A stretch of DNA of 64,000 bases from Heptranchias perlo. Its lineage: Eukaryota. The stretch lies in the NCBI RefSeq assembly GCF_035084215.1, contig NW_027139653.1:1-64000 (forward strand), read 5' to 3'. The notes beneath the pieces are model-generated. The model saw only the letters and a list, made by a program, of their open reading frames with translations, was not told where the DNA came from and searched no databases. The number at the start of each line of letters is the position of its first letter. The first letter of the stretch is position 1. The position numbers and the translations under genes are program-made. Shown here in pieces: positions 680 to 63,652 of this stretch.

Positions 680-3041
680 CTCCCCCTCACCTGTCCTCCT
701 CTCTCTCCCTCACCTGTCCTCCTCTCTCTCCCCCTCACCTGTCCTCCTCTCTCTCCCCCTCACCTGTCCTCCTCTCTCTCCCCCTCACCTGTCCTCCTCT
801 CTCTCTCCCCCTCACCTGTCCTCCCCTCTCTCTCCTCACCTGTCCTCCTCTCTCTCCCCCTCACCTGTCCTCCTCTCTCTCCCCCTCACCTGTCCTCCTC
901 TCTCTCCCCCTCACCTGTCCTCTCTCTCTCTCCCCCTCACCTGTCCTCCTCTCTCTCCCCCTCACCTGTCCTCCTCTCTCTCCCACTCACCTGTCCTCCT
1001 CTCTCTGCCCCTCACCTGTCCTCCTCTCTCTCTCCCTCACCTGTCCTCCTCTCTCTCCCCCTCACCTGTCCTCCTCTCTCTCTCCCCCTCACCTGTCCTC
1101 CTCTCTCTCCCCCTCACCTGTCCTCCTCTCTCTCCCCCTCACCTGTCCTCTCTCTCTCCCCCTCACCTGTCCTCCTCTCCCCCCTCACCTGTCCTCCTCT
1201 CTCTCCCCCTCACCTGTCCTCCTCTCTCTCCCCCTCACCTGTCCTCCTCTCTCTCCCCCTCACCTGTCCTCCTCTCTCTCTCCCCCTCACCTGTCCTCCT
1301 CTCTCTCCCCCTCACCTGTCCTCCTCTCTCTCCCCCTCACCTGTCCTCCTCTCTCTCTCCCCCTCACTTGTCCTCCTCTCTCTCCCCCTCACCTGTCCTC
1401 CTCTCTCTCTCCCCCTCACCTGTCCTCTCTCTCTCCCCCTCACCTGTCCTCCTCTCTCTCCCCCTCACCTGTCCTCCTCTCTCTCCCCCTCACCTGTCCT
1501 CCTCTCTCTCCCCCTCACCTGTCCTCTCTCTCTCCCCCTCACCTGTCCTCCTCTCTCTCCCCCTCACCTGTCCTCCTCTCTCTCTCCCCCTCACCTGTCC
1601 TCCTCTCTCTCCCCCTCACCTGTCCTCCTCTCTCTCCCCCTCACCTGTCCTCCTCTCTCTCCCCCTCACCTGTCCTCCTCTCTCTCTCCTCACCTGTCCT
1701 CCTCTCTCTCCCCCTCACCTGTCCTCCTCTCTCTCCCCCTCACCTGTCCTCCTCTCTCTCTCCCTCACCTGTCCTCCTCTCTCTCCCCCTCACCTGTCCT
1801 CCTCTCTCTCCCCCTCACCTGTCCTCCTCTCTCCCCCTCACCTGTCCTCCTCTCTCTCCCCCTCACCTGTCCTCCTCTCTCTCCCCCTCACCTGTCCTCC
1901 TCTCTCTCCCCCTCACCTGTCCTCCTCTCTCCCCCTCACCTGTCCTCCTCTCTCTCCCCCTCACCTGTCCTCCTCTCTCTCTCCCCCTCACCTGTCCTCC
2001 TCTCTCTCCCCCTCACCTGTCCTCCTCTCTCTCCCCCTCACCTGTCCTCCTCTCTCTCCCCCTCACCTGTCCTCCTCTCTCTCCCCCTCACCTGTCCTCC
2101 TCTCTCTCCCCCTCACCTGTCCTCCTCTCTCTCCCCCTCACCTGTCCTCCTCTCTCTCCCCCTCACCTGTCCTCCTCTCTCTCTCCTCACCTGTCCTCCT
2201 CTCTCTCCCCCTCACCTGTCCTCCTCTCTCTCCCCCTCACCTGTCCTCCTCTCTCTCTCCTCACCTGTCCTCTCTCTCTCCCCCTCACCTGTCCTCCTCT
2301 CTCTCCCCCTCACCTGTCCTCCTCTCTCTCTCCCCCTCACCTGTCCTCCTCTCTCTCCCCCTCACCTGTCCTCCTCTCTCTCCCCCTCACCTGTCCTCCT
2401 CTCTCTCCCCCTCACCTGTCCTCCTCTCTCCCCCTCACCTGTCCTCCTCTCTCTCCCCCTCACCTGTCCTCCTCTCTCTCTCCTCACCTGTCCTCTCTCT
2501 CTCCCCCTCACCTGTCCTCCTCTCTCTCCCCCTCACCTGTCCTCCTCTCTCTCTCCCCCTCACCTGTCCTCCTCTCTCTCCCCCTCACCTGTCCTCCTCT
2601 CTCTCCCCCTCACCTGTCCTCCTCTCTCTCCCCCTCACCTGTCCTCCTCTCTCCCCCTCACCTGTCCTCCTCTCTCTCCCCCTCACCTGTCCTCCTCTCT
2701 CTCTCCTCACCTGTCCTCCTCTCTCCCCCTCACCTGTCCTCCTCTCTCTCCCCCTCACCTGTCCTCCTCTCTCTCTCCTCACCTGTCCTCTCTCTCTCCC
2801 CCTCACCTGTCCTCCTCTCTCTCCCCCTCACCTGTCCTCCTCTCTCTCTCCCCCTCACCTGTCCTCCTCTCTCTCCCCCTCACCTGTCCTCCTCTCTCTC
2901 CCCCTCACCTGTCCTCCTCTCTCCCCCTCACCTGTCCTCCTCTCTCTCTCTCTCCTCTCTCTCTTTCTCCTTCTCCCTCTCCCCCTCACCTGTCCTCCTC
3001 TCTCTCTCTCTCCTCTCTCTCTTTCTCCTTCTCTCTCTCTC
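680..3041. repeat. 25-bp polypyrimidine minisatellite (roughly 95 copies)
   Basis: Unit CCCCTCACCTGTCCTCCTCTCTCTC with 23-27 bp variants from (CT)n slippage. Confidence 0.97.
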
Positions 3042-3070
3042 CGTGACGGAGCCTCTGACCGTCTCCCCAG

Positions 3071-3121
3071 AGTGCACCGGGGCCGCGGGCGGACCGCTTT
3101 CCGAGCCGCGCGGCCTTGTGG
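3071..3121 (+). CDS. Candidate 51-nt internal exon of an unidentified upstream gene
   Basis: Unique CpG-rich island between two minisatellites; CTGAC branch-like motif and TCTCCCCAG acceptor before it, G|GTAATG donor after it; 51 nt preserves frame (phase 1 reading xCTGAAGGPLSEPRGLV). Confidence 0.45.
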
Positions 3122-3128
3122 GTAATGA

Positions 3129-6100
3129 CCACCGCCATTGCTGCTCCCAGACTGACCAAAACACCAGACAGACAGGGGGGAATCCCACCATCAGTCACTG
3201 CACCCAGACTGACCAAAACACCAGACAGACAGGGGGGAATCTCACCATCAGTGACCGCTCCCAGAATGACCAAAACACCAGACAGACAGGGGGGAATCTC
3301 ACCATCAATCACCGCTCCCAGACTGACCAAAACACCAGACAGACAGGGGGGAATCTCACCATCAGTCACCGCTCCCAGACTGACCAAAACACCAGACAGA
3401 CAGAGGGGAATCTCACCATCAGTGACCGCTCCCAGACTGACCAAAACACCAGACAGACAGGGGGGAATCTCACCATCAGTCACCGCTCCCAGACTGACCA
3501 AAACACCAGACAGACAGAGTGGAATCTCACCATCAGTGACCGCTCCCAGACTGACCAAAACACCAGACAGACAGGGGGGAATCTCACCATCAGTGACCGC
3601 TCCCAGACTGACCAAAACACCAGACAGACAGGGGGAATCTCACCATCAATCACCGCTCCCAGACTGACCAAAACACCAGACAGACAGGGGGGAATCTCAC
3701 CATCAGTCACCGCTCCCAGACTGACCAAAACACCAGACAGACAGAGGGGAATCTAACCATCAGTCACCGCTCCCAGACTGACCAAAACACCAGACAGACA
3801 GGGGGGAATCTCACCATCAGTGACCGCTCCCAGACTGACCAAAACACCAGACAGACAGGGGGGAATCTCACCATCAGTGACCGCTCCCAGACTGACCAAA
3901 ACACCAGACAGACAGGGGGGAATCTCACCATCAGTGACCGCTCCCAGACTGACCAAAACACCAGACAGACAGGGGGGAATCTCACCATCAGTGAACGCTC
4001 CCAGACTGACCAAAACACCAGACAGACAGAGGGGAATCTCACCATCAGTGACCGCTCCCAGACTGACCAAAACACCAGACAGACAGGGGGAATCTCACCA
4101 TCAATCACCTCTCCCAGACTGACCAAAACACCAGACAGACAGGGGGAATCTCACCATCAATCACCGCTCCCAGACTGACCAAAACACCAGACAGACAGGG
4201 GGGAATCTCACCATCAGTCACCGCTCCCAGACTGACCAAAACACCAGACAGACAGGGGGAATCCCACCGTCAATCACCGCTCCCAGACTGACCAAAACAC
4301 CAGACAGACAGGGGGGAATCTCACCATCAGTGACCGCTCCCAGACTGACCAAAACACCAGACAGACAGGGGGGGAATCTCACCATCAGTCACCGCTCCCA
4401 GACTGACCAAAACACCAGACAGACAGGGGGTATCTCACCATCAGTCACCGCTCCCAGACTGACCAAAACACCAGACAGACAGAGGGGGAATCTCACCATC
4501 AGAGACCGCTCCCAGATTGACCAAAACACCAGACAGACAGAGGGGGGAATCTCACCATCAGTGACCGCTCCCAGACTGACCAAAACACCAGACAGACAGA
4601 GGGGAATCCCACCATCAATCACCGCTCCCAGACTGACCAAAACACCAGACAGACAGAGGGGAATCTCACCATCAGTCACCGCTCCCAGACTGACCAAAAC
4701 ACCAGACAGACAGAGGGGAATCTCACCATCAGTCACCGCTCCCAGACTGACCAAAACACCAGACAGACAGGGGGGAATCTCACCATCAGTGACCGCTCCC
4801 AGACTGACCAAAACAATAGACATACAGAGGGGAATCCCACCATCAGTCACCGCTCCCAGACTGACCAAAACACAAGACAGACAGAGGGGAATCCCACCAT
4901 CAGTCACCGCTCCCAGACTGACCAAAACACCAGACAGACAGGGGGGAATCTCACCATCAGTCACCGCTCCCAGACTGACCAAAACACCAGACAGACAGAG
5001 GGGAATCTCACCATCAGTGACCGCTCCCAGACTGACCAAAACACCAGACAGACAGAGGGGAATCTCACCATCAATCACCGCTCCCAGACTGACCAAAACA
5101 CCAGACAGACAGGGGGGAATCTCACCATCAGTGACCGCTCCCAGACTGACCAAAACACCAGACAGACAGGGGGGAATCTCACCATCAATCACCGCTCCCA
5201 GACTGACCAAAACACCAGACAGACAGGGGGGAATCTCACCATCAGTGACCGCTCCCAGACTGACCAAAACACCAGACAGACAGAGGGGAATCTCACCATC
5301 AATCACCGCTCCCAGACTGACCAAAACACCAGACAGACAGGGGGGAATCTCACCATCAGTCACCGCTCCCAGACTGACCAAAACACCAGACAGACAGGGG
5401 GGAATCTCACCATCAATCACTGCTCCCAGACTGACCAAAACACCAGACAGACAGGGGGGAATCTCACCATCAGTGACCGCTCCCAGACTGACCAAAACAC
5501 CAGACAGACAGAGGGGAATCTTACCATCAATCACCGCTCCCAGACTGACCAAAACACCAGACAGACAGGGGGGAATCTCACCATCAGTCACCGCTCCCAG
5601 ACTGACCAAAACACCAGACAGACAGGGGGGAATCTCACCATCAGTCACCGCTCCCAGACTGACCAAAACACCAGACAGACAGAGGGGGAATCTCACCATC
5701 AGTCACCGCTCCCAGACTGACCAAAACACCAGACAGACAGAGGGGAATCTCACCATCAGTCACCGCTCCCAGACTGACCAAAACACCAGACAGACAGGGG
5801 GGAATCTCACCATCAGTCACCGCTCCCAGACTGACCAAAACACCAGACAGACAGAGGGGAATCCCACCATCAGTCACCGCTCCCAGACTGACCAAAACAC
5901 AAGACAGACAGAGGGGAATCCCACCATCAGTCACCGCTCCCAGACTGACCAAAACACCAGACAGACAGGGGGGAATCTCACCATCAGTCACCGCTCCCAG
6001 ACTGACCAAAACACCAGACAGACAGAGGGGAATCTCACCATCAGTGACCGCTCCCAGACTGACCAAAACACCAGACAGACAGAGGGGAATCTCACCATCA

Positions 6101-9100
6101 ATCACCGCTCCCAGACTGACCAAAACACCAGACAGACAGGGGGGAATCTCACCATCAGTGACCGCTCCCAGACTGACCAAAACACCAGACAGACAGGGGG
6201 GAATCTCACCATCAATCACCGCTCCCAGACTGACCAAAACACCAGACAGACAGGGGGGAATCTCACCATCAGTGACCGCTCCCAGACTGACCAAAACACC
6301 AGACAGACAGAGGGGAATCTCACAATCAATCACCGCTCCCAGACTGACCAAAACACCAGACAGACAGGGGGGAATCTCACCATCAGTCACCGCTCCCAGA
6401 CTGACCAAAACACCTGACAGACAGGGGGGAATCTCACCATCAATCACTGCTCCCAGACTGACCAAAACACCAGACAGACAGGGGGGAATCTCACCATCAG
6501 TGACCGCTCCCAGACTGACCAAAACACCAGACAGACAGAGGGGAATCTCACCATCAATCACCGCTCCCAGACTGACCAAAACACCAGACAGACAGGGGGG
6601 AATCTCACCATCAGTCACCGCTCCCAGACTGACCAAAACACCAGACAGACAGGGGGGAATCTCACCATCAATCACTGCTCCCAGACTGACCAAAACACCA
6701 GACAGACAGGGGGAATCTCACTATCAATCACCGCTCCCAGACTGACCAAAACACCAGAGAGACAGGGGGTATCTCACCATCAGTGACCGCTCCCAGACTG
6801 ACCAAAACACCAGACAGACAGGGGGGAATCTCACCATCAGTCACCGCTCCCAGACTGACCAAAACACCAGACAGACAGAGGGGAATCTCACCATCTGTCA
6901 CCGCTCCCAGACTGACCAAAACACCAGACAGACAGAGGGGAATCTCACCATCAGTGACCGCTCCAAGACTGACCAAAACACCAGACAGACAGGGGGGAAT
7001 CCCACCATCAATCACCGCTCCCGGACTGACCAAAACACCAGACAGACAGAGGGGAATCTCACCATCAGTCACCGCTCCCCGACTGACCAAAACACGAGAC
7101 AGACAGAGGGGAATCTCACCATCAGTGACCGCTCCAAGACTGACCAAAACACCAGACAGACAGGGGGGAATCCCACCATCAATCACCGCTCCCAGACTGA
7201 CCAAAACACCAGACAGACAGAGGGGAATCTCACCATCAGTCACCGCTCCCCGAGGGACCAAAACACGAGACAGACAGAGGGGAATCCCACCATCAGTGAC
7301 CGCTCCCAGACTGACCAAAACACCAGACAGACAGAGGGGGACTCTCACCATCAGTGACCGCTCCCAGACTGACCAAAACACCAGACAGACAGGGGGAATC
7401 TCACCATCAGACACCGCTCCCAGACTGACCAAAGCAGCAGTCAGACAGGGGGGAATCCCACCATCAATCACCGCTCCCAGTCTGACCAAAACACCAGACA
7501 GACAGAGGGGAATCTCACCATGAATCACCGCTCCCAGACTGACCAAAACACCAGACAGACAGAGGGGAATCCCACCATCAATCACCGCTCCCAGACTGAC
7601 CAAAACACCAGACAGACAGGGGGGAATCTCACCATCATTGACCGCTCCCAGACTGACCAAAACACCAGACAGACAGAGGGGAATCTCACCATCAGTGACC
7701 GCTCACAGACTGACCAAAACACCAGACAGACAGGGGGGAATCTCACCATCAGTCACCGCTCACAGACTGACCAAAACACCAGACAGACAGGGGGAATCCC
7801 ACCATCAGTGACCGCTCCCAGACTGACCAAAACACCAGACAGACAGAGGGGAATCCCACCATCAGTGACCGCTCCCAGACTGACCAAAACACCAGACAGA
7901 CAGAGGGGGAATCTCACCATCAGTCACCGCTCCCAGACTGACCAAAACACCAGACAGACAGGGGGGAATCTCACCATCAGTCACCGCTCCCAGACTGACC
8001 AAAACACCAGACAGACAGGGGGGAATCTCACCATCAATCACCGCTCCCAGACTGACCAAAACACCAGACAGACAGGGGGGAATCTCACCATCAATCACCG
8101 CTCCCAGACTGACCAAAACACCAGACAGAAGGCGGGGAATCTCAACATCAGTGACCGCTCCCAGACTGACCAAAACACCAGAGAGACAGAGGGGAATCTC
8201 ACCATCAGTCACCGCTCCCAGACTGACCAAAACACCAGACAGACAGGGGGGAATCTCACCATCAGTGACCGCTCCCAGACTGACCAAAACACCAGACAGA
8301 CAGAGGGGAATCTCACCATCAGTGACTGCTCCCAGACTGACCAAAACACCAGACAGACACAGGGGGGAATCTCACCATCAGTCACCACTCCCAGACAGAC
8401 CAAAACACCAGACAGACAGAGGGGAATCCCGCCATCAGTGACCGCTCCCAGACTGACAAAAACACCAGACAGACAGGGGGAATCTCACCATCAGACACCG
8501 CTCCCAGACTGACCAAAGCAGCAGTCAGACAGGGGGGAATCCCACCATCAATCACCGCTCCCAGACTGACCAAAACACCAGACAGACAGAGGGGAATCTC
8601 ACCATCAATCACCGCTCCCAGACTGACCAAAACACCAGACAGACAGAGGGGAATCCCACCATCAATCACCGCTCCCAGACTCACCAAAACACCAGACAGA
8701 CAGGGGGTAATCTCACCATCAGACACCGCTCCCAGACTGACCAAAGCAGCAGTCAGACAGGGGGGAATCCCACCATCAATCACCGCTCCCAGACTGACCA
8801 AAACACCAGACAGACATAGGGGAATCCCACCATCAATCACCGCTCCCAGACTGACCAAACCACCAGACAGACAGAGGGGAATCTCACCATCAATCACCGC
8901 TCCCAGACTGACCAAACCACCAGACAGACAGAGGGGAATCTCACCATCAATCACCGCTCCCAGACTGACCAAAACACCAGACAGACAGGGGGGGAATCTC
9001 ACCATCAGTGACCGCTCCCAGACTGACCAAAACACCAGACAGACAGGGGGGAATCCCACCATCAATCACCGCTCCCAGACTGACCAAAACACCAGACAGA

Positions 9101-12100
9101 CAGGGGGGAATCTCACCATCAGTGACCGCTCCCAGACTGACCAAAACACCAGACAGACAGGGGGGAATCTCACCATCAATCACCGCTCCCAGACTGACCA
9201 AAACACCAGACAGACAGGGGGGAATCTCACCATCAGTGACCGCTCCCAGACTGACCAAAACACCAGACAGACAGGGGAGAATCCCACCATCAATCACCGC
9301 TCCCAGACTGACCAAAACACCAGACAGACAGGGGGGAATCTCACCATCAGTGACCGCTCCCAGACTGACCAAAACACCAGACAGACAGAGGGGAATCTCA
9401 CCATCATTCACCGCTCCCAGACTGACCAAAACACCAGACAGACAGGGGGGGAATCACACCATCAGTCACCGCTCACAGACTGACCAAAACACCAGACAGA
9501 CAGAGGGGAATCTCACCATCAATCTCCGCTCCCAGACTGACCAAAACACCAGACAGACAGAGGGGGAATCTCACCATCAGTGACCGCTCCCAGACTGACC
9601 AAAACACCAGACAGACAGGGGGGAATCTCACCATCAGTGACCGCTCCCAGACTGACCAAAACACCAGACAGACAGAGGGGAATCTCACCATCAGTGACCG
9701 CTCACAGACTGACCAAAACACCAGACAGACAGGGGGGAATCTCACCATCAGTCACCGCTCACAGACTGACCAAAACACCAGACAGACAGGGGGAATCCCA
9801 CCATCAGTGACCGCTCCCAGACTGACCAAAACACCAGACAGACAGAGGGGAATCCCACCATCAGTGACCGCTCCCAGACTGACCAAAACACCAGACAGAC
9901 AGAGGGGGAATCTCACCATCAGTCACCGCTCCCAGACTGACCAAAACACCAGACAGACAGGGGGGAATCTCACCATCAGTCACCGCTCCCAGACTGACCA
10001 AAACACCAGACAGACAGGGGGGAATCTCACCATCAATCACCGCTCCCAGACTGACCAAAACACCAGACAGACAGCGGGGAATCTCACCATCAGTGACCGC
10101 TCCCAGACTGAGCAAAACACCAGACAGACAGAGGGGAATCTCACCATCAATCACCGCTCCCAGACTGAGCAAAACACCAGACAGACAGTGGGGAATCTCA
10201 CGATCAATCACCGCTCCCAGACTGACCAAAACGCCAGACAGACAGAGGGGGAATCTGACCATCAGTCACCGCTCCCAGACTGACCAAAACACCAGAGAGA
10301 CAGAGGGGAATCTCACCATCAGTCACCGCTCCCAGACTGACCAAAACACTAGACAGACAGGGGGGAATCTCACCATCAGTGACCGCTCCCAGACTGACCA
10401 AAACACCAGACAGACAGAGGGGAATCTCACCATCAGTGACCACTCCCAGACAGACCAAAACACCAGACAGACAGAGGGGAATCCCGCCATCAGTGACCGC
10501 TCCCAGACTGACAAAAACACCAGACAGACAGGGGGAATCTCACCATCAGACACCGCTCCCAGACTGACCAAAGCAGCAGTCAGACAGGGGGGAATCCCAC
10601 CATCAATCACCGCTCCCAGACTGACCAAAACACCAGACAGACAGAGGTGAATCTCACCATCAATCACCGCTCCCAGACTGACCAAAACACCAGACAGACA
10701 GAGGGGAATCCCACCATCAATCACCGCTCCCAGACTCACCAAAACACCAGACAGACAGGGGGTAATCTCACCATCAGACACCGCTCCCAGACTGACCAAA
10801 GCAGCAGTCAGACAGGGGGGAATCCCACCATCAATCACCGCTCCCAGACTGACCAAAACACCAGACAGACATAGGGGAATCCCACCATCAATCACCGCTC
10901 CCAGACTGACCAAACCACCAGACAGACAGAGGGGAATCTCACCATCAATCACCGCTCCCAGACTGACCAAACCACCAGACAGACAGAGGGGAATCTCACC
11001 ATCAATCACCGCTCCCAGACTGACCAAAACACCAGACAGACAGGGGGGAATCTCACCATCAGTCACCGCTCCCAGACTGACCAAAACACCAGACAGACAG
11101 GGGGGAATCTCACCATCAATCACCGCTCCCAGACTGACCAAAACACCAGACAGACAGGGGGGAATCTCACCATCAGTGACCGCTCCCAGACTGACCAAAA
11201 CACCAGACAGACAGGGGAGAATCCCACCATCAATCACCGCTCCCAGACTGACCAAAACAGCAGACAGACAGGGGGGAATCTCACCATCAGTGACCGCTCC
11301 CAGACTGACCAAAACACCAGACAGACAGAGGGGAATCTCACCATCATTCACCGCTCCCAGACTGACCAAAACACCAGACAGACAGGGGGGGAATCACACC
11401 ATCAGTCACCGCTCACAGACTGACCAAAACACCAGACAGACAGAGGGGAATCTCACCATCAATCTCCGCTCCCAGACTGACCAAAACACCAGACAGACAG
11501 AGGGGGAATCTCACCATCAGTGACCGCTCCCAGACTGACCAAAACACCAGACAGACAGAGGGGAATCTCACCATCAATCACCGCTCCCAGACTGACCAAA
11601 ACACCAGACAGACAGAGGGGAATCTCACCATGAATCACCGCTCCCAGACTGACCAAAACACCAGACAGACAGGGGGGAATCTCACCATCAATCACCACTC
11701 CCAGACTGACCAAAACATCAGAGAGACAGGGGGGAATCTCACCATCAGTCACCGCTCCCAGACTGACCAAAACACCAGACAGACAGGGGGGAATCCCACC
11801 ATCAATCACCGCTCCCAGACTGACCAAAACACCAGACAGACAGGGGGGGAATCACACCATCAGTCACCGCTCCCAGACTGACCAAAACACCAGACAGACA
11901 GGGGGGAATCTCACCATCAGTCACCGCTCCCAGACTGACCAAAACACCAGACAGACAGAGGGGAATCTCACCATCAGTCACCGCTCCCAGACTGACCAAA
12001 ACACCAGACAGACAGGGGGGAATCTCACCATCAGTCACCGCTCCCAGACTGACCAAAACACCAGACAGACAGAGGAGAATCCCACCATCAGTCACCGCTC

Positions 12101-13965
12101 CCAGACTGACCAAAACACCAGACAGACAGAGGGGAATCTCACCATCAATCACCGCTCCCAGACTGACCAAAACACCAGACAGACAGGGGGGAATCTCACC
12201 ATCAATCACCGCTCCCAGACTGACCAAAACACCAGACAGACAGGGGGGAATCTCACCATCAATCACCGCTCCCAGACTGACCAAAACACCAGACAGACAG
12301 GGGGGAATCTCACCATCAGTCACCGCTCCCAGACTGACCAAAACACCAGACAGACAGGGGGGAATCTCACCATCAATCACCGCTCCCAGACTGACCAAAA
12401 CACCAGACAGACAGAGGGGAATCTCACCATCAATCACCGCTCCCAGACTGACCAAAACACCAGACAGACAGGGGGGAATCTCACCATCAGTCACCGCTCC
12501 CAGACTGACCAAAACACCAGACAGACAGGGGGGAATCTCACCATTAATCACCGCTCCCAGACTGACCAAAACACCAGACAGACAGGGGGGAATCTCACCA
12601 TCAGTCACCGCTCCCAGACTGACCAAAACACCAGACAGACAGAGGGGAATCTCACCATCAATCACCGCTCCCAGACTGACCAAAACACCAGACAGACAGG
12701 GGGGTATCCCACCATCAGTGACCGCTCCCAGACTGACCAAAACACCAGACAGACAGGGGGGAATCCCACCATCAGTCACCGCTCCCAGACTGACCAAAAC
12801 ACCAGACAGACAGAGGGGAATCTCACCATCAATCACCGCTCCCAGACTGACCAAAACACCAGACAGACAGGGGGGAATCTCACCATCAATCACCGCTCCC
12901 AGACTGACCAAAACACCAGACACACAGGGGGGAATCTCACCATCAGTCACCGCTCCCAGACTGACCAAAACACCAGACAGACAGAGGGGAATCTCACCAT
13001 CAATCACCGCTCCCAGACTGACCAAAACACCAGACAGACAGGGGGGAATCTCACCATCAATCACCGCTCCCAGACTGACCAAAACACCAGACAGACAGAG
13101 GGGAATCTCACCATCAGTCACCGCTCCCAGACTGACCAAAACACCAGACAGACAGAGGGGAATCTCACCATCAGTCACCGCTCCCAGACTGACCAAAACA
13201 CCAGACAGGGGGGAATCTCACCATCAATCACCTGTCCCAGACTGACCAAAACACCAGACAGACAGGGGGGGAATCCCACCGTCAGTGACCGCTCCCAGAC
13301 TGACCAAAACACCAGACAGACAGGGGGGAATCTCACCATCAGTCACCGCTCCCAGACTGACCAAAACACCAGACAGACAGGGGGGAATCTCACCATCAAT
13401 CACCTGTCCCAGACTGACCAAAACACCAGACAGACAGGGGGGGAATCCCACCATCAATCACCGCTCCCAGACTGACCAAAACACCAGACAGACAGGGGGG
13501 AATCTCACCATCAATCACCGCTCCCAGACTGACCAAAACACCAGACAGACAGAGGGGAATCTCACCATCAGTCAACGCTCCCAGACTGACCAAAACACCA
13601 GACAGACAGAGGGGAATCTCACCATCAGTCACCGCTCCCAGACTGACCAAAACACCAGACAGGGGGGAATCTCACCATCAATCACCTGTCCCAGACTGAC
13701 CAAAACACCAGACAGACAGGGGGGGAATCCCACCGTCAGTGACCGCTCCCAGACTGACCAAAACACCAGACAGACAGGGGGGAATCTCACCATCAGTCAC
13801 CGCTCCCAGACTGACCAAAACACCAGACAGACAGGGGGGAATCTCACCATCAATCACCTGTCCCAGACTGACCAAAACACCAGACAGACAGGGGGGGAAT
13901 CCCACCATCAATCACCGCTCCCAGACTGACCAAAACACCAGACAGACAGGGGGGAATCCCACCAT
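3129..13965. repeat. 57-bp minisatellite, about 190 copies, with higher-order blocks
   Basis: Unit ACCGCTCCCAGACTGACCAAAACACCAGACAGACAGGGGGGAATCTCACCATCAGTC; accounts for all repetitive ORFs in this interval. Confidence 0.98.
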
Positions 13966-21364: not shown

Positions 21365-21416
21365 ATGCTGCTTGTTACTTTACTGAACGTTTACTGTGTG
21401 CCCAACGTCTCCTCTG
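21365..21416 (+). CDS. MHC class I signal-peptide (leader) exon, copy 1
   Basis: ACAACATG context, in-frame TGA 12 nt upstream, encodes MLLVTLLNVYCVPNVSS plus G, donor G|GTAAGC. Phase 1 joins the alpha1 exon in frame (G+AT = Asp, then FH). Confidence 0.8.
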
Positions 21417-28351: not shown

Positions 28352-28403
28352 ATGCTGCTTGTTACTTTACTGAACGTTTACTGTGTGCCCAACGTCTCCT
28401 CTG
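28352..28403 (+). CDS. MHC class I leader exon, copy 2 (identical to copy 1)
   Basis: Same 52-nt ATG..TCTG followed by GTAAGC. Confidence 0.8.
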
Positions 28404-35155: not shown

Positions 35156-35166
35156 CGTCTCCTCTG
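35156..35166 (+). pseudogene. Remnant of leader exon, copy 3 (ATG and proximal promoter removed by a 218-bp deletion)
   Basis: CCACTCCCTG is joined directly to CGTCTCCTCTG|GTAAGC; equivalent to loss of 28175-28392 in copy 2. Confidence 0.8.
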
Positions 35167-42098: not shown

Positions 42099-42150
42099 AT
42101 GCTGCTTGTTACTTTACTGAACGTTTACTGTGTGCCCAACGTCTCCTCTG
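42099..42150 (+). CDS. MHC class I leader exon, copy 4 (closest intact leader, 10.7 kb from alpha1)
   Basis: Identical 52-nt exon with GTAAGC donor at 42151. Confidence 0.82.
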
Positions 42151-52888: not shown

Positions 52889-53149
52889 ATTTCCACATCC
52901 TCGCATTTTACTACATACTGAGCCGTGGCGGGGCCGAGATGCCCGAGTACAGCTTGGTCGCGATGCTCGATGACTATGAGATAGTGTATTTCGACAGCAC
53001 CCTGCAGCGGACTGTGCCCAGACAGCAGTGGATGGCCGACTCCTTCGACAACCATCACTGGGACGCCATCGCCATCACAATGGCGGGGTTCCATGGTCTG
53101 GTCAGAGGAAACGCCGAGATATTTTACCGACAGCAACACAGTGCCTCGA
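52889..53149 (+). CDS. MHC class I heavy chain (nonclassical), alpha1 domain exon
   Basis: CTGCAG acceptor, A|GTGAGT donor, 261 nt, phase 1/1; (D)FHILAFYY..PEY..LDD..YFDS..VPRQQWM..HWD matches class I alpha1 motifs (H3, D29, FDS, PRxxW, W60). Confidence 0.95.
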
Positions 53150-53304
53150 GTGAGTATCCTCACAGATTCGGTGCAGCTATCGACTGACAGGAGGAAAGGA
53201 TTTGTATCCATTTTGAGCCTTATCCTGTCTCGGAGAAATGTCCCGAACCACTTTACACCCATTAAATGACTTGGGATGACCTAGTCATTGGCACTATCTG
53301 GGAG

Positions 53305-55055
53305 TAACATGGCAGACATTTTCTGCACAGCAAATGGCAATGAGATGATTGATTTGTTCATCTGTTTTTATTGGTGTGGATTGAGGGAGAAATGGGAGCA
53401 ATAGGTTCTTTTTATGTTCATTTGAACAGGAAGACGAGGCCTCAATTTAACGTCTCATCTGAAGGACGGCATCTCCGATAGTGCAGCACTCCCTCAGTAC
53501 TGCCCCTCCGACAATGCATCGCTCCCTCAGTACTGCCCCTCCGACAATGCATCGCTCCCTCAGTACTGCCCCTCCGACAATGCATCACTCCCTCAGTATT
53601 GCCTCTCCGACAATGCATCACTCCCTCAGTACTGACCCTCCGACAATGCATCACTCCCTCAGTACTGCCTCTCCGACAATGCATCACTCCCTCAGTACTG
53701 CCTCTCCGACAATGCATCACTCCCTCAGTACTGCCTCTCCGACAATGCATCACTCCCTCAGTACTGCCTCTCCGACAATGCATCACTCCCTCAGTATTGC
53801 CTCTCCGACAATGCATCACTCCCTCAGTACTGCCTCTCCGACAATGCATCACTCCCTCAGTATTGCCTCTCCGTCAGTGCAGCACTCCCTCAGTACTGCC
53901 CCTCCGTCAGTGCAGCACTCCCTCAGTACTGCCCCTCCGACAGTGCATCACTCCCTCAGTACTGCCTCTCTGACAGTGCATCACTCCCTCAGTACTGCCC
54001 CTCCGACAGTGCATCACTCCCTCAGTACTGCCTCTCTGACAGTGCATCACTCCCTCAGTACTGCCCCTCCGACAATACATCACTCCCTCAGTACTGCCCC
54101 CCGACAGTGCAGCACTCCCTCAGTACTGCCTCTCTGACAGTGCATCACTCCCTCAGTACTGCCCCTCCGACAGTGCAGCGCTCCCTCAGTACTGCCCCTC
54201 CGACAGTGCAGCGCTCCCTCAGTACTGCCCCTCCGACAGTGCAGCACTCCCTCAGTACTGCCCCTCCGTCAGTGCAGCTCTCCCTCAGTACTGACCCTCC
54301 GACAGTGCAGCTCTCCCTCAGTACTGACCCTCCGACAGTGCATCACTCCCTCAGGACTGCCCCAACGTCAGTGCAGCTCTCCCTCAGTACTGCCCCTCCG
54401 ACAGTGCATCACTCCCTCAGTACTGCCCCTCCGACAGTGCATCACTCCCTCAGTACTGCCTCTCTGACAGTGCATCACTCCCTCAGTACTGCCCCTCCGA
54501 CAATACATCACTCCCTCAGTACTGCCCCCCGACAGTGCAGCACTCCCTCAGTACTGCCTCTCTGACAGTGCATCACTCCCTCAGTACTGCCCCTCCGACA
54601 GTGCAGCGCTCCCTCAGTACTGCCCCTCCGACAGTGCAGCGCTCCCTCAGTACTGCCTCTCCGACAGTGCAGCGCTCCCTCAGTCCTGCCCCTCCGACAG
54701 TGCAGCACTCCCTCAGTCCTGCCTCTCCGACAGTGCAGCGCTCCCTCAGTACTGCCCCTCCGACAGTGCAGCGCTCCCTCAGTACTGCCCCTCCGACAGT
54801 GCAGCACTCCCTCAGTCCTGCCTCTCCGACAGTGCAGCGCTCCCTCAGTACTGCCCCTCCGACAGTGCAGCGCTCCCTCAGTACTGCCCCTCCGACAGTG
54901 CAGCACTCCCTCAGTCCTGCCCCTCCGACAGTGCAGCACTCCCTCAGTACTGACCCTCCGACAGTGCAGCACTCCCTCAGTCCTGCACTGGAGTTTCAGC
55001 CCGGATAATGCGCTCAAATCTCTGGAGTGGGGCCTGAAACCACGACCTTCTTACT
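53305..55055 (-). mobile_element. Deu-domain SINE containing an internal 33-bp minisatellite expansion
   Basis: TTTAACGTCTCATCTGAAGGACGGCATCTCCGATAGTGCAGCACTCCCTCAGTACTGC before the array resumes as ACTGGAGT..CTCTGGAGTGGG after it. Confidence 0.75.
53478..54986. repeat. 33-bp minisatellite (about 45 copies)
   Basis: Unit CAGTACTGCCCCTCCGACAGTGCAGCACTCCCT. Confidence 0.97.
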
Positions 55056-55064
55056 CTCACCTCT

Positions 55065-55605
55065 AGTTCAGAAGGTTGTGGGTTCAAGACCCACTCCAGA
55101 GACTGGAGCACAAAATCTCGGCTGGCACTCCCAGTGCAGCACTGAGGGAGGGGCAGCACTGAGGGAGGGGCAGCACTGAGGGAGGGGCAGCACTGTGGGA
55201 GGGGCAGCACTGAGGGAGGGGCAGCACTGTGGCAGGGGCAGCACTGAGGGAGGGGCAGCACTGAGGGAGGGGCAGCACTGAGGGAGTGCAGCACTGAGGG
55301 AGGGGCAGCACTGTGGGAGGGGCTGCACTGAGGGAGGGGCAGCACTGAGGGAGGGGCAGCACTGAGGGAGGGGCAGCACTGAGGGAGGGGCAGCACTGTG
55401 GGAGGGGCAGCACTGTGGGAGGGGATTACTGAGGGAGGGGCAGCACTGAGGGAGTGCAGCACTGAGGGAGGGGCAGCACTGTGGGAGGGGCAGCACTGAG
55501 GGAGGAGCAGCACTGTGGGAGGGGCAGCACTGAGGGAGGGGCAGCACTGAGGGAGGGGCAGCACTGAGGGAGGGGCAGCACTGAGGGAGGGGCAGCACTG
55601 AGGGA
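55065..55605 (+). mobile_element. Second SINE (tRNA-like head) head-to-head with the previous one, ending in an 18-bp minisatellite (55134-55605, about 26 copies)
   Basis: TCAGAAGGTTGTGGGTTCAAGACCCACTCCAGAGA with a B-box-like GGTTCAAGACC, then (GCAGCACTGAGGGAGGGG)n. Confidence 0.75.
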
Positions 55606-56057
55606 TTTGATGTGAGCACCTTGAACGTTGGAATGAAATCATCGCTGCCACTTGTTTCTCCTCTTCTAAAGCTGCGTTGCCAGGGTTACTAACAAACAGA
55701 TGAAATCAGGACAGGCGGGTCCATCAAGCCTGTCCTGTCTTGGCACGGTGAAACAACACACACACACACACCATCAGCACCCTCTCCCTCCCACAGTCAC
55801 ACAATCTCCTGGGAGAGGCCAAAGAAAGAGGATGAAACTGAGGCCAAGTTAGGAAAGCAAACACTCTGGGAGATTCCTCTGCGACCCCCCCCCCAGGGAA
55901 TCGAGGAAGGTGCAGGAGACCACAGTGTCTGATATCACTGGTCCCCATTAACCCCACACACCTCCTATAACTCGAGATACTTTCTATTGGTCGCCAGTCC
56001 CCTTTCCAACACTTGCAGTCCACACACACACACTGTGCATGCAGGCAACTTGTTCAT

Positions 56058-57345
56058 CGAATCACAGAAAGGTGACAGCACGGAAGGAGGCCATTCGGCC
56101 CATCGAGTCCGTGCTGGTTCTATGCAAGAGCAATCCAGCTAGTCCCTCTCCCCTGCCCTATCCCTGTAGCCCTGCAAATTTTTTCCTTTCATTACTTATC
56201 CAGTTCCCTTTTGAAGTCCACGATTGAATCTGCCTCCACCACCCCCTCGGGCCGTGCATTCCAGATCCTAACCACTCGCTGTGTAAAAAAGTTTTTCCTC
56301 AAGTCACCTTTGGTTCTTTTGCCAATCACCTTAAATCTATGACCTCTGGTTTTTAACCCTTCCGTCAATGGGAATAGTTTCTTCATGATTTTGAACACCT
56401 CTATCAAATCCCCTCGCAACCGTCTCTGTTCCAAGGAGAACAACCCCAGCTTCTCCAGTCTATCCACATAACTAAAGTCCCTCATCCCTGGAATCATTCT
56501 GGTAAATCTATTCTGCACCCTCTCTAAGGCCTTCACATCCTTCCTAAAGTGCGGTGCCCAGAACTGGACACAATACTCCAGTTGTGGCCGAACCAGTGTT
56601 TTATAAAGGTTCATCATGACTTCCATACTTTTGTACTCTATGCCTCTTTTTAAAAAGCCCAGGATCCAGGATGCTTTTTTAACCGCTTTCTCAACCTGCC
56701 CTGCTACCTTGAATGATTTGTGCACATATACCCCCAGATCTCTCTGTTCCTGTACCCTTTTAGAATTGTGCCCTCCAGTACCTCTTCTATATCAATTTTT
56801 AGCCCATCCAGTATCTTAACTATATCTTCCTTTACTGAGACTCTGGCAGCATCTTCTTCCTTGGTAAAAACAGATGCAAATTACTCATTTAGTACCTTGG
56901 CCATCTCCTCTGCCTCCATGAGGAGATCTCCTTTATGGTCCCTAATCGGCCCCACCCCTCCTCTTACTACCCGTTTACTGTTTATATGCCTGCAGAAGAC
57001 TTTTGGATTCCCTTTTATGTTGACCGTCAGTCTATTCTCAGACTCTCTCTTTGCCCCTCTTATTTCCTTTTTCACTTCCCCTCTGAACTTTCTATATTCT
57101 GCCTGGTTCTCACTTTTATTATCAACCTGATATCTGTCATATGCCCCTTTTTTCTGTTTCATCTTACTCTCTATCTCTTTTGTCATCCAGGGAGCTCTGG
57201 CTTTAGTTGCCCGACCTTTCTCCCTCGTGGAGACTGTACCCGAACCATCTCCTCCTTAAAGGCCGCCCACTGTTCAATTACAGTTTTGCCTGACAATCTT
57301 TGATTCCGATTTACCCGGGACCAGATCTGTTCTCATCCCACTGAA
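56058..57345 (-). mobile_element. CR1 LINE fragment with most of RT deleted (junction near 56770)
   Basis: C-terminal LVRPQLEYCVQFWAPH block joined to the EN-RT linker block (NIKGNPKVF..GPIRD). Confidence 0.9.
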
Positions 57346-57446
57346 ATTCCAGAGATCGATGACTCTCTGTGACAATCTAACCTATTGCTAAGGTTAAAGT
57401 CCAAGACAGCAGGACATAAATGGAACCTCAACGTAACACAGCTGCT

Positions 57447-57758
57447 TAGGAGCATCGAAAGAGGAAGAGGCCATTCAGCCCCTCGAGCCTGCTCCACCAT
57501 TCATTTATATCATGGCTAATCTGCACCGTAACTCCATTTTCCAGCCTTTGCTTCCTATCCATCGATACCCTAACCGAACAAAAATTTAACAATCTCAGTC
57601 TTGAAAGCTCCAATGGGTCCCCAGCATCCCACAGCCTTTTGGGGGAGAGAGTTCCTGATTCCCACTCCCCTTTGTGTGATAAAGTGCTTCCTGATTTCAC
57701 TCCTAAATGGCCTGGCTCTAAATCTAAGATCTTGATTCCCCCACCTGAGGAAATAGTC
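57447..57758 (-). mobile_element. CR1 3' UTR fragment
   Basis: GGCCATTCAGCCCCTCGAGCCTG..CACTCCCCTTTGTGTG..GAGGAAATAG, same family as 19320-19765. Confidence 0.8.
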
Positions 57759-57759
57759 C

Positions 57760-57960
57760 CTCTGGAATTCCCTCCCTAAACCTCTCCACCTCTCTCTCCT
57801 CCTTTAAGATGCTCCTTCAAACCTACCTCTTTGTCCAAGCTTTTGGTCACCTGTCCTAATATCTCCTTATGTGGCTCGGTGTCAAATTTTGTTTGTCAAG
57901 TGCCTTGTGATGTTTTACTCCGTGAAAGGCGCTATATAAATGCAAGTTGTTGTTGTTGTA
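57760..57960 (+). mobile_element. L2-type 3' end with (TTG)n tail just upstream of the alpha2 exon
   Basis: CTCTGGAATTCCCTCCCTAAACCTCTC..GGCGCTATATAAATGCAAGTTGTTGTTGTTG; reverse-complement match to 17733-17970. Confidence 0.85.
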
Positions 57961-58014
57961 TGTACCCGATCGAACCCTTTTCACATTTTCAATTGACTTG
58001 AGTTGTTTCTCCAG

Positions 58015-58290
58015 GTGTTTTCTTTGTCCAGGGAATGTGTGGCTGCGAACTGAACAGCGACAACTCCACGGAGGGGTTTATAAAGTTTGGATATGACGGG
58101 GAGGACGCGTATGTTTTTGACAAGGACAGATTGAGTTGGATTGCGGTGAATCCAGAGTTCCAGACTTTAGCAGACCGGTGGAATGCGAACACCTTCATGA
58201 ACAAATACTTCAAGACCCTGTTGGAAAAGGACTGTGTGAAGTGGCTGCTGATATACCTTCGGGCTGGGCGAGAAGCACTACAGAGGAAAG
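58015..58290 (+). CDS. MHC class I heavy chain (nonclassical), alpha2 domain exon
   Basis: TTTCTCCAG acceptor, AAAG|GTACCT donor, 276 nt, phase 1/1; VQGMCGCEL..FGYDGED..FD..W..RWN..LEKDCVKWL..YL..G..L with the C101-C164 pair. Confidence 0.97.
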
Positions 58291-60811: not shown

Positions 60812-61084
60812 TCGCCCCTGAGGTGTTTATTGGGAAGAGGAGTGACGGGGACAGAGTGCTAAGGGTCTCCTGCCTTGTGTCGGGGTTCTACCCCTGGGCC
60901 ATCGAGGTGACTTGGTTGGGGAATGGCGAGGAGATCGCTGACATTGAATCCAGTGACGTGCTGCCCAACCAGGATATGACCTATCGGGTACTGAAAACGA
61001 TCGAGCTGAGTGGAGACAACAGGAAGAGCTACTCCTGTCATATCGAGCACGCCAGCCTCCTGCGGGGGATCAACGTACCCTGGG
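60812..61084 (+). CDS. MHC class I heavy chain, alpha3 (Ig C1) domain exon
   Basis: CTCTCAG acceptor, TGGG|GTGAGT donor, 273 nt, phase 1/1; APEV..SCLVSGFYP..IEVTW..VLPNQDMTY..YSCHIEHASL..W. Confidence 0.97.
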
Positions 61085-61299
61085 GTGAGTGGCAAATCGG
61101 GGGGGGGGGCTCAGGGTCTTTCCCTGTGTCTCGGGGGGGCCGCGAGGTACTTCCTGCGCCTCTGGGTCCTTCCCCGATTCTCGGGAGGGCCGCAGAGTTT
61201 TTCACCGTGTCTTTGGTGGTGGGGGGGCAGAGTTTTTCCCCGTGTCTTGCAGGGGCCGCAGGGTCCTTCCCCGTGTCTTGGGGGGGGGCCGCAAGGTCC

Positions 61300-63652
61300 T
61301 TCCCGGGCCTCTGGGTCATTCCCCGTGCCTCTGGGTCCTTTCCCGTGCCTCTGGGTCCTTTCCCGTGTCTCCGCATCCTTCCCTGTCCCTCTGGGTCCTT
61401 CCCGGTGTCTCAGGGTCATTCCCCGTGCCTCTGGGTCCTTCCCCATGCCTCTGGGTCCTTTCCCGTGCCTCTGGGTCCTTTCCCGTGTCTCCGCATCCTT
61501 CCCTGTCCCTCTGGGTCCTTCCCGGTGTCTCAGGGTCATTCCCCGTGCCTCTGGGTCCTTCCCCATGCCTCTGGGTCCTTCCCCGTGCCTCTGGGTCCTT
61601 CCCCGTGCCTCTGGGTCCTTCCCGGTGTCTCGGGGTCCTTCCCCATGTCTCGGGGTCCTTCCCGGTGTCTCGGGGTCCTTCCCCATGTCTCGGGGTCCTT
61701 CCCGGTGTCTCGGGGTCCTTCCCGGTGTCTCGGGGTCCTTCCCGGTGTCTCGGGGTCATTCCCGTGTCTCGGGGTCCTTCCCCGTGCCTCTGCGACCTTC
61801 CCCGTGCCTCTGGGTCCTTCCCCGTGTCTCAGGGTCCTTCCCCGGTCCTTCCCCGTGCCTCTGGGTCCTTCCCCGTGCCTCTGGGTCCTTCCCCGTGTCT
61901 CAGGATCCTTCCCCGGTCCTTCCCCGTGCCTCTGGGTCCTTCCCCATGTCTCGGGGTCCTTCCCCGTGCCTCCGGGTCCTTCCCCGTGCCTCGGGGTCCT
62001 TCCCGGTGTCTCGGGGTCATTCCTGTGTCTTGGGGTCATTCCCCGTGTCTCAGGGTCCTTCCCTGTGCCTCTGTGTCCTTCCCCGTGCCTCTGTGTCATA
62101 TCCCGTGCCTCTGGATCATTCCCTGTGCCTCTGGGTCCTTCCCCGTGCCTCTGGGTCCTTCCCCGTGCCTCTGGGTCCTTCCCCATGCCTCTGGGTCCTT
62201 CCCCGTGTCTCTGGGTCCTTCCCCGTGCCTCTGTGTCCTTCCCCATGTCTCGGGGTCCTTCCCGGTGTCTCGGGGTCCTTCCCGGTGTCTCGGGGTCCTT
62301 CCCGGTGTCTCGGGGTCATTCCTGTGTCTTGGGGTCATTCCCCGTGTCTCAGGGTCCTTCCCCGGTCCTTCCCTGTGCCTCTGGGTCCTTCCCCGTGCCT
62401 CTGTGTCCTTCCCCGTGCCTCTGTGTCATATCCCGTGCCTCTGCGTCCTTCCCCGTGCCTCTGCGTCCTTCCCCGTGCCTCTGCGTCCTTCCCCGTGCCT
62501 CTGCGTCCTTCCCCGTGCCTCTGCGTCCTTCCCCGTGCCTCTGGGTCCTTCCCCGTGCCTCTGGGTCCTTCCCCGTGCCTCTGGGTCCTTCCCCGTGCCT
62601 CTGGGTCCTTCCCGGTGTCTCGGGGTCCTTCCCCGTGTCTCGGGGTCCTTCCCGGTGTCTCGGGGTCCTTCCCGGTGTCTCGGGGTCATTCCCGTGTCTC
62701 GGGGTCCTTCCCCGTGCCTCTGGGTCCTTCCCGGTGTCTCGGGGTCCTTCCCCATGTCTCGGGGTCCTTCCCGGTGTCTCGGGGTCCTTCCCGGTGTCTC
62801 GGGGTCCTTCCCGGTGTCTCGGGGTCATTCCCGTGTCTCGGGGTCCTTCCCCGTGCCTCTGCGACCTTCCCTGTGCCTCTGGGTCCTTCCCCGTGTCTCA
62901 GGGTCCTTCCCCGGTCCTTCCCCGTGCCTCCGGGTCCTTCCCCGTGCCTCGGGGTCCTTCCCCGTGCCTCTGTGTCCTTCCCTGTGCCTCTGGGTCCTTC
63001 CCGTGCCTCTGCGTCCTTCCCTGTGCCTCTGGGTCATTCCCCGTGCCTCTGTGTCCTTCCTCGTGCCTCTGGGTCCTTCCCTGTGCCTCTGGGTCCTTCC
63101 CCGTGCCTCAGGGTCCTTCCCTGTGCCTCTGGGTCCTTCCCTGTGTCTCTGTGTCCTTCCCCGTGCCTCGGGGTCCTTCCCTGTGCCTCTGGGTCCTTCC
63201 CTGTGTCTCTGTGTCCTTCCCCGTGCCTCTGGGTCCTTCCCTGTGCCTCTGGGTCCTTCCCCATTTCTCTGGATCCTCCCTTGTGACTCTAGGTCATTCC
63301 CTGTGTCTCTGGGTACTTCCCTGTGCCTCTGGGTCCTTCCCTGTGCCTATGTGTCCTTCCCTGTGCCTCGGGGTCCTTCCCTGTGTCTCTGTGTCCTTCC
63401 CTGTGCCTCGGGGTCCTTCCCTGTGTCTCTGGGTCCTTCCCTGTGCCTCGGGGTCCTTCCCTGTGTCTCTGGGTCCTTCCCCGTGTCTCGGGGTCCTTCC
63501 CTGTGCCTCTGGGTCATTCCCCGTGCCTCAGGGTTCTTCCCCGTGCCTCTGGATCATTCCCCGTGCCTCTGGGTCATTCCCCGTGCCTCTGGGTCATTCC
63601 CCGTGCCTCTGGGTCATTCCCCGTGCCTCTGGGTCCTTCCCCGTGTCTCAGG
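61300..63652. repeat. 20-bp minisatellite (about 115 copies) in the intron after alpha3
   Basis: Unit CCCCGTGCCTCTGGGTCCTT and variants; degenerate precursors from about 61110. Confidence 0.97.

Follow-up and report, generated by a model that had tools for sequence, protein, structure and literature searches.

The window analyzed here, a stretch of 64,000 nucleotides from Heptranchias perlo (NW_027139653.1, positions 1–64,000), contains an MHC class I gene whose product appears to represent a distinct nonclassical lineage, sister to UGA, with a conserved apolar groove that would hold one fixed class of lipid-type ligand and not peptides, a reading to which we assign a probability of roughly 60%. 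The following features were located:

21365..21416, plus strand: leader exon, additional full copy together with its upstream sequence, in a tandem unit of ~6.9 kb
28352..28403, plus strand: leader exon, another additional full copy, 896/901 bases being as in the 42099 unit
35156..35166, plus strand: remnant of a fourth leader copy, retaining the 3' end of the exon and the donor only, without ATG
42099..42150, plus strand: leader exon, coding part, the nearest of the three complete copies, with a GT donor
52889..53149, plus strand: alpha1 exon, 261 nt (Pfam MHC_I, E 3.7e-06, slightly below the curated cut-off)
53473..55605, no strand assigned: two minisatellites with 33-bp and 17-bp units, in the alpha1–alpha2 intron
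58015..58290, plus strand: alpha2 exon, 276 nt (Pfam MHC_I, E 1.8e-18)
58038..58040, plus strand: Cys99 codon, a third cysteine on the predicted groove-floor strand, without an invariant partner
60812..61084, plus strand: alpha3 exon (Ig C1-set), beyond the interval of the preliminary description
61295..63649, no strand assigned: minisatellite with a 20-bp unit, 3' of the alpha3 exon

An intact ectodomain is encoded by four exons, the leader (42099), alpha1, alpha2 and alpha3 (60812), all in phase 1 and yielding an MHC platform plus C1-set fold (model pLDDT 89.6). All 17 residues of the leader match the start of the protein records P0004 and P0013, and the window protein is identical to an H. 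perlo protein record at 263/263 residues. The alpha1 and alpha2 exons have AG/GT borders and are free of stops, in agreement with the intact frame of the preliminary description; that description had overlooked residues G97 and C99 as well as the 42099 leader exon and gave no coordinates for the alpha3 exon. At peptide-anchor sites the alpha1 exon encodes F7, H59 and Q84, and its helix motif T66-M-A-G-F-H-G72 is common to the window gene and UGA, while the alpha2 exon encodes G97, C99, A123, L143, R146, F156, L159 and D163, the C101–C164 pair and one N-glycan sequon. Residues H3, D29, Q96, G120, D122 and C101/C164 are present as had been described, and the alpha3 proline equated with P235 (P248 in P0013) does not vary across the 91-row alignment. 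A tblastn search with full-length P0004 gave no credible match to the transmembrane and tail part within the 64-kb window; these exons are present in near-identical copies (e.g., P0004 and P0018), and the RefSeq model of the window copy is partial. No other genes were found within the 64-kb window.

Splicing was shown for a near-identical copy of the gene, in one sample. A spliced RNA-type contig joins leader sequence to position 52889 across GT..AG, and since the three leader copies are identical over the stretch covered by this contig, it cannot tell which of them is used. The alpha2-to-alpha3 joint was likewise GT..AG in 3/3 runs, all from one sample and none registered as RNA. The contig differs from the window at three places, including A>G at 61018, and therefore fits other copies better. 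The H. perlo records hold 11 lineage proteins on at least seven scaffolds, the other species having one or two records each; in these H. perlo records the lineage is thus multi-copy, and one UGA gene was found. Simple pattern searches of the 600 bases 5' of the three leader copies returned CCAAT boxes and one kB-like site (without a control) and no ISRE-like, TATA or CRE motifs.

In phylogenetic analysis, the lineage sequences from 16 species (11 sharks, 5 rays) formed a clade of their own, and a separate UGA is also carried by 13 of these species. The lineage and UGA form separate clades with support of 100/99 and 100/100, each containing both sharks and rays; the UGA rows were labelled by their likeness to the supplement of PMC10751288, the nurse shark UGA itself lying outside the tree. 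The two, along with one UFA-like row, form a clade with support of 100/99, and this support was the same (100/99) when the UFA-like row was omitted. That row is single, was labelled by eye and has a long branch, and its placement beside the lineage is weak (90/75); with it included, the comparison of UFA against UGA as the closer sister gave p 0.14. The approximately unbiased (AU) and alpha3 trees were built on 32 of the 49 rows after removal of near-duplicates (31 without the UFA-like row). On alpha3 alone, the grouping of the lineage with UGA was not rejected (p 0.29), and shuffling of the alpha3 exon, which a link to a UEA-like row (87/72) had raised, was dropped as an explanation.

By these trees the window gene is a sister paralogue of UGA and not UGA itself, which answers the question, left undecided in the preliminary description, of whether it belongs to a known or a new lineage, with a position that was absent from the list considered there. 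It is most improbable that the window gene is simply UGA in its H. perlo form or arose by recent duplication of UGA, and as orthology this is already refuted. The best PDB match is indeed UGA, but H. perlo has a UGA of its own (P0201, 74% identical to sawshark UGA), the pairing of the window protein with this own-species UGA was rejected (AU p 1.6e-38), both clades contain sharks and rays, and identity is ~40% to nurse shark UGA (PDB 9CH4) versus 63–66% to carpet-shark orthologues. The separation of the lineage from UGA is, on the same trees, older than the shark–ray split. UGA is probably the neighboring gene of the lineage gene in the MHC class Ib cluster. In sawfish, LOC127585976, which was equated with the protein P0172 on its name and record length alone, immediately precedes three F10-like genes of class Ib in the interval from B2M to COL11A2.

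Membership of classical UAA was rejected on alpha1–alpha2 (AU p 4.9e-06), which together with the retention of only 2/9 anchors upholds the earlier assignment to nonclassical class I. A clade shared with MR1 was also rejected (p 0.0003) on a tree of 25 of the 49 rows and six background rows, the comparison being with a single MR1-like row identified by its motif; the K43-equivalent of the window protein is T. Within the sampling of the trees, the lineage is distinct from UAA, UDA, UEA-like and UFA sequences, UBA and dogfish UCA having been compared by eye only.

Classical class Ia molecules have eight or nine conserved peptide-end anchors. The window protein keeps W147 and Y171 (2/9) and has replacements at the other seven (F7, H59, Q84, A123, L143, R146, L159), exactly as described previously; the HLA-A2 numbering was assigned by eye, with the HLA-A2/UGA alignment of the PMC10751288 supplement as guide. 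The apolar groove residues named in that description are likewise all there, F116 among them, a residue that is atypical of the lineage, which has L in 14/17 rows. Averaged over the 40 groove positions, only two of which are charged, Kyte–Doolittle hydropathy was 1.17. Sufficient positions for scoring were available in 114 of the 140 class I representatives used as background (mean 0.24, sd 0.42); 1.17 was reached by 5/114 and exceeded the value of the other 109; the 60 background proteins with at least seven anchors ranged from -0.57 to 0.48. Values for the 17 lineage rows were 1.04–1.51, compared with 0.35–1.21 for 21 UGA rows and -0.41 to 0.31 for three UAA rows. The groove is also conserved, with 22/40 positions invariant across 16 species, more so than the remainder of alpha1–alpha2 (p 0.015), and among the 11 proteins in the H. 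perlo records, of which several are partial, there are zero changes at scored groove positions.

It was earlier proposed that the ligand is not a peptide, and this gains indirect support from the nearest relatives, since UFA and UGA are mentioned as lipid binders like CD1d in a review, as a personal communication (PMC12562908). Binding of a restricted range of lipopeptides or hydrophobic peptides, held by an altered anchor network, would be in keeping with the retention of W147, W167 and Y171, with helices of normal length and with a whole-ectodomain model that fits peptide binders almost as well (9CH4 Z 27.8, tied with peptide-binding class I of duck, 27.1, and chicken, 26.9). Some chicken classical molecules are, moreover, as hydrophobic as CD1, according to PMC5002281. 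Both end networks, however, are lost (F7, H59, L159 and Q84, L143, A123), the replacements being fixed in every lineage row with coverage of these sites, and we consider such a peptide ligand quite unlikely.

Searches with the full-length sequence and with structural models place UGA closest among solved structures. The best match to the full-length sequence is 9CH4 (241 bits), which also leads the search with the platform model (Z 24.7, rmsd 1.7, 179 aligned), followed by HFE (22.9), with lower scores for chicken CD1-1 (22.4), ZAG with fatty acid (21.7), FcRn (21.0) and UFA (8GM8, 19.9), while Foldseek placed MR1 chains above 9CH4. These matches are uninformative on the openness of the groove, and the models depend on alignments. 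HFE and FcRn have closed grooves. That the groove of the lineage is likewise closed and empty, with apolar residues packing the helices and a protein partner bound instead, is an unlikely reading in our view, despite the higher rank of both molecules relative to peptide binders when the platform was searched, the G97 shared with FcRn, and very apolar invariant positions that would suit a packed core equally well. Set against this are the report that UGA, the nearest relative and top match by 1.8 Z, holds lipid, and the floor itself, where side-chain volume averaged over eight positions is 145–152 in complete lineage rows versus 156–170 in UGA and UAA; floor residues smaller than those of both suggest a cavity.

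Cys99 is the sole extra cysteine in alpha1–alpha2 of the window protein, and position 99 is C in 17/17 lineage rows and F in 21/21 UGA rows. Together with the invariant polar groove residues of the lineage (H59, T66, N77, R146, D163) and the match to ZAG with fatty acid, this residue could speak for a single acyl chain or a hydrophobic metabolite of small size as ligand, perhaps bound via the free Cys99 thiol in a manner comparable to the MR1 lysine or the fatty acid of ZAG. C99 is also present, though, in 6/114 background class I proteins and may be a mere small apolar residue; the site of the MR1 lysine is T, I, A or C, and grouping with the MR1-like row was rejected as above. We judge a small ligand of this kind to be rather unlikely.

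The predicted cytoplasmic tails separate the two sister lineages further, as YxxPhi occurs in 0/16 tails of the lineage versus 14/21 of UGA (in one case at a distance from the membrane), and no acidic di-leucine motif was found in 16/16 predicted lineage tails. A recycling motif in the tail is present in many CD1 molecules but not in all; the tyrosine motif is missing from CD1a and CD1e too, as noted in PMC5002281. Under the preferred reading of a lipid-type ligand, the heavy chain would pair with beta2-microglobulin, the contact residues for which are retained in the window protein, and the small floor residues G97 and C99, with L159 in place of Y159, may open up a deeper pocket for an acyl chain beneath F7, Y9, M67, F70 and F156. 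Without YxxPhi, loading would take place either at the surface or in compartments of the early secretory or recycling routes, and NK-type receptors or innate-like T cells might be shown a lipid pool other than that of UGA, a division of lipid pools that can be likened to CD1a beside CD1b and CD1d. A more far-reaching scenario is offered tentatively, and we hold it to be possible though doubtful: a duplication before the shark–ray split would have turned a CD1-like presenter into two adjacent isotypes, independently of mammalian CD1, with UGA bearing a tyrosine motif like CD1b and CD1d and the lineage lacking one like CD1a. The lineage would then have the most apolar groove among the sampled shark lineages, Cys99 would select or covalently hold the ligand, and recent amplification would have given about a dozen copies in the sevengill.

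The lineage itself appears to be new, the idea of hydrophobic CD1-like shark class I molecules being already known. No description or name was found in the literature covered, which did not include the primary paper on UFA and UGA, and a name may stand in a paper or thesis; the helix motif of the lineage gave 0 matches among the lineage queries of the PMC10751288 supplement. Limited word-index searches returned no members from chimaeras, bony fish or tetrapods, nor were close ones seen among the best 150 representatives. The origin of lipid presentation is an open question in immune evolution, UFA and UGA having only recently been proposed as CD1-like, and if the reading is true, cartilaginous fish had already split non-peptide presentation between isotypes, with a third conserved lineage beside UGA that differs from it in its groove and lacks an endosomal sorting motif. 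The lineage is experimentally tractable, owing to the solved sister structure 9CH4 and a single mutable residue, Cys99, and near-invariant orthologues are found in laboratory species (catshark, bamboo shark and little skate).

When compared to known systems, UAA, UDA and the UEA/UCA-type molecules have the same class I fold and exon layout, and probably the same MHC linkage, but, unlike the lineage, keep 5–9 anchors and have polar grooves. UEA is known only from sharks and is multi-copy, while the window lineage is also found in rays. MR1 gives the best alpha2 sequence matches (79 bits) and the top Foldseek rows, which probably explains the automatic RefSeq name. K43, R9 and R94 have a role in ligand binding by MR1, whereas the lineage lacks the lysine at the K43-equivalent as well as R9 and R94. 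UFA (8GM8), reported as CD1-like, falls in the same clade through the one UFA-like row and also retains 2/9 anchors; its identity to the lineage is 28–41% per domain, and its alpha1 match is 43 bits versus 84 for UGA.

UGA is the closest of these systems. Entry 9CH4, released on 2026-03-18 and titled as the shark nonclassical class I UGA, has the sequence of Gcirratum_UGA in the PMC10751288 supplement. UGA shares with the lineage its presence in sharks and rays, a conserved apolar groove and residues G97, F156, L159, D163, H71, G72 and G76, which are rare in 11 other rows. It differs in having Y, Y, Q, F, K, Y and W where the lineage has F7, H59, N77, C99, R146, D122 and L168, in keeping 3–6 anchors versus 1–2, and in a less apolar groove, with identity at groove positions of only 32–55%.

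With CD1 the lineage shares an apolar groove, lost peptide anchors and low variation. G97 may have a role in the tunnel of CD1b. The human CD1 row of the PMC10751288 supplement also has G97, but it has G at position 116, where the lineage has an aromatic residue or leucine, and in structural alignments identity to CD1 is 16–20%, the lineage differing also in keeping W147 and Y171. A predominantly hydrophobic groove, which the window protein has, is given as a criterion for CD1 in PMC5002281. The absence of a tyrosine motif from the tail is as in CD1a. The best reading is of a lipid-type presenter that may stand to UGA roughly as CD1a stands to CD1b.

The preliminary description had placed a class I gene with an intact frame at 52889..58290, and both platform exons, open and in phase 1, were indeed found there. 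The features identified were as follows.

Exons of the window gene and leader copies
21365 and 28352, + strand: additional complete leader exon copies, in tandem units of ~6.9 kb
35156, + strand: leader exon remnant (3' end only), in the ~6.9 kb tandem units
42099-42150, + strand: leader exon, upstream of alpha1
52889-53149, + strand: alpha1 exon, AG/GT ends, phase 1, stop-free; Pfam MHC_I just under cut-off
58015-58290, + strand: alpha2 exon, AG/GT ends, phase 1, stop-free; Pfam MHC_I
60812-61084, + strand: alpha3 exon, AG/GT ends, phase 1, stop-free; Pfam C1-set

No transmembrane exon was found within the 64-kb window. The encoded ectodomain is identical at 263/263 residues to P0013 (XP_067836932.1, Heptranchias perlo, partial), one of 11 near-identical H. 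perlo proteins (P0004, P0009-P0018) that occupy at least seven scaffolds, two of which carry three each. Their alpha1-alpha2 domains differ by A78T and G87S only, outside the scored groove positions. Other species have one or two records of the lineage each, and the H. perlo copies may represent a recent amplification or uncollapsed haplotypes, both being possible.

The tandem units (20800-45450) are 94-99.5% alike; three carry the full leader exon with its upstream sequence and one the leader 3' end only, and in the single unit scanned the minus strand has frames for a LINE endonuclease and reverse transcriptase. These repeats could provide a series of promoters whose transcripts are all spliced to the one alpha1 exon, or they could be an assembly artefact. 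The region 1-13965 holds long minisatellites (25-bp unit x93 and 57-bp unit x190) giving long spurious open frames, with no Pfam match in the one such frame scanned.

Sequencing evidence came from three runs of one sample, none recorded as RNA. Alpha2 was joined to alpha3 in all three, and in a contig of run X1 leader sequence was joined to alpha1 across a GT..AG intron; by these joins the lineage is spliced, as judged from a transcript near-identical to the window copy. The X1 contig departs from the window once in the leader segment, once in alpha1 and once in alpha3; the alpha3 mismatch (A>G at 61018) gives the residue of the other H. perlo copies. In both the leader-alpha1 and the alpha2-alpha3 comparison the X1 record is 1438 long with a depth of 31.7, and the matched positions abut; from this we infer a single transcript of leader, alpha1, alpha2 and alpha3, extended by about 540 bases.

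Among solved structures, alpha1 matched best to 9CH4 (83.9 bits) and then 8GM8 (43.1), titled in the PDB as shark nonclassical class I UGA and as UFA, respectively. The full-length protein also matched 9CH4 best (241 bits); for alpha2 by itself MR1 ranked first (79 bits vs 66). As far as they are printed, both sequences are the same as those used in the PMC10751288 supplement as nurse shark queries for UGA and UFA. The window protein is only about 40% identical to 9CH4. Proteins from other sharks and rays matched the window protein at 59-72% identity; with further species reached through cluster members, the lineage is known in 16 species including H. perlo (11 sharks, 5 rays). UGA-type proteins, one from H. 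perlo, were recovered in a separate search.

In a 49-row ectodomain tree, the lineage (17 rows, 100/99) and UGA (21 rows, 100/100) formed separate clades, both holding sharks and rays, with 13 species in both. Together with the one UFA-like row they grouped (100/99) apart from UAA, UDA and the one UEA-like row; CD1, UBA and dogfish UCA were absent from the tree. The sawfish UAA was labelled by accession and the other rows by eye against the PMC10751288 supplement. The lineage-UGA grouping held without the UFA-like row (100/99, alpha1-alpha2). That the window gene is plain UGA is highly improbable, since its pairing with the UGA of its own species was rejected (p 1.6e-38, alpha1-alpha2, 32 of the 49 rows). 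The phylogenetic checks proposed earlier bore out a position outside UAA (grouping rejected on the same rows, p 4.9e-06) and outside a clade with the MR1-like row (p 0.0003).

No member of the lineage was present among the lineage queries in the accessible part of that supplement. It is a real and conserved variant, of a kind known only recently, that apparently has no name yet, though one quite possibly exists elsewhere in the literature. Inspected by eye, the chimaera sequence labelled Cmilii_UGA (PMC10751288, Supplemental File 10) has neither AGFHG nor MNxYFK, two motifs found in elasmobranch UGA, and looks doubtful as an orthologue.

In H. perlo, two Chiloscyllium species and little skate, lineage and UGA accession numbers are consecutive or nearly so, and the paired records are of the same length. 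In the sawfish chr34 table of PMC10751288, LOC127585976 is the sole gene with the matching automatic name and is flagged only as MHC-Ib. It sits in the interval from B2M to COL11A2/RXRB and immediately precedes three F10-like class Ib genes; the UGA-type proteins recovered from sawfish number three. As LOC127585976 was matched by name and record length, adjacency of the lineage gene to UGA is presumed. UGA is triplicated in sawfish (including P0209, P0211) and sawshark (P0029, P0030, P0200), and two of the sawfish copies sit on long branches, with altered helix motifs and tails devoid of a tyrosine motif. In three RefSeq models from little skate (P0181, P0182, P0212), UGA is fused to a GPR139-like receptor, probably through the mis-joining of neighbouring genes.

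Nine peptide anchors and 40 groove positions were scored. HLA-A2 numbering was transferred by eye from the PMC10751288 supplement. Only W147 and Y171 are retained, with F7, H59, Q84, A123, L143, R146 and L159 replacing the other anchors, exactly as first described. The groove, already noted as apolar, has a mean hydropathy of 1.17 and two charged residues; it is equalled in 5 of the 114 scorable proteins among 140 background class I representatives, and the 60 background proteins with at least seven anchors reach at most 0.48. Hydrophobic peptides as the ligand appear quite unlikely.

Two residues of the floor strand, G97 and C99, had been overlooked. C99 occurs in 17/17 lineage rows, with no invariant partner cysteine, and in 6/114 background proteins; a small or thiol-linked ligand is judged unlikely. 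Extra cysteines recur close to the groove across the lineage, namely C124 in rays and C45 in carpet sharks (P0171, P0174, P0218, P0219), the latter having also lost W147 (1/9 anchors). Position 242 of alpha3 (60812-61084, residues DMTYR), a beta2-microglobulin contact, is R in most lineage sharks and Q in rays and most class I; G239 is replaced in lineage sharks and sawfish.

In the lineage 22/40 groove positions are invariant vs 54/139 other alpha1-alpha2 positions (p 0.015), whereas the UGA groove is not significantly more conserved (p 0.17), a pattern that points to a putative single fixed ligand or partner. A closed groove is an unlikely alternative.

The ectodomain and platform models had mean pLDDT values of 89.6 and 86.4. 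For the whole ectodomain, 9CH4 (Z 27.8) and classical molecules of birds scored about equally. When the platform was searched alone among 48,161 representatives, it ranked UGA (24.7), HFE (22.9), chicken CD1-1 (22.4), ZAG (21.7) and FcRn (21.0) above peptide binders (20.2-20.8), CD1d (20.1) and UFA (19.9). Because UGA sequences were in the alignment used to fold the platform model, this model-based ranking confirms kinship and says little about the ligand.

The most probable reading (about 0.6) is that the protein pairs with beta2-microglobulin and presents a lipid-type ligand, on the grounds that both peptide-end networks are lost, a floor of small residues lies beneath apolar walls, the groove is fixed and UFA and UGA are its kin. 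For UFA and UGA, crystal structures and mass spectrometry suggest lipid binding like that of CD1d, according to a personal communication cited in a 2025 review (PMC12562908), and UFA was termed CD1-like on unpublished data (PMC10751288). Against the lipid reading, CD1 is not separable by hydropathy alone from some chicken classical molecules (PMC5002281), and G97 is shared with FcRn (PMC10751288 supplement).

The lineage and UGA share G97, F156, L159, D163, H71, G72 and G76, rare elsewhere, and differ at fixed groove positions (lineage/UGA: F7/Y, H59/Y, N77/Q, C99/F, I114/L, R146/K). YxxPhi occurs in 14/21 UGA rows and 0/16 lineage rows, in tails taken from gene predictions, some of which may be wrong; the missing sorting motif suggests that the lineage may load its ligand outside late endosomes. 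No statement on a tyrosine motif was found in the available literature passages on UGA. Its tails carry YQNI, YENI, YNVI or YNAV (P0185, P0183, P0198, P0199, P0202, P0204, P0206, P0208, P0210 and others). The skate motif, YQNI, has the letters given for a human CD1, and the UGA motifs resemble the ones given for CD1b, CD1c and CD1d (PMC5002281).
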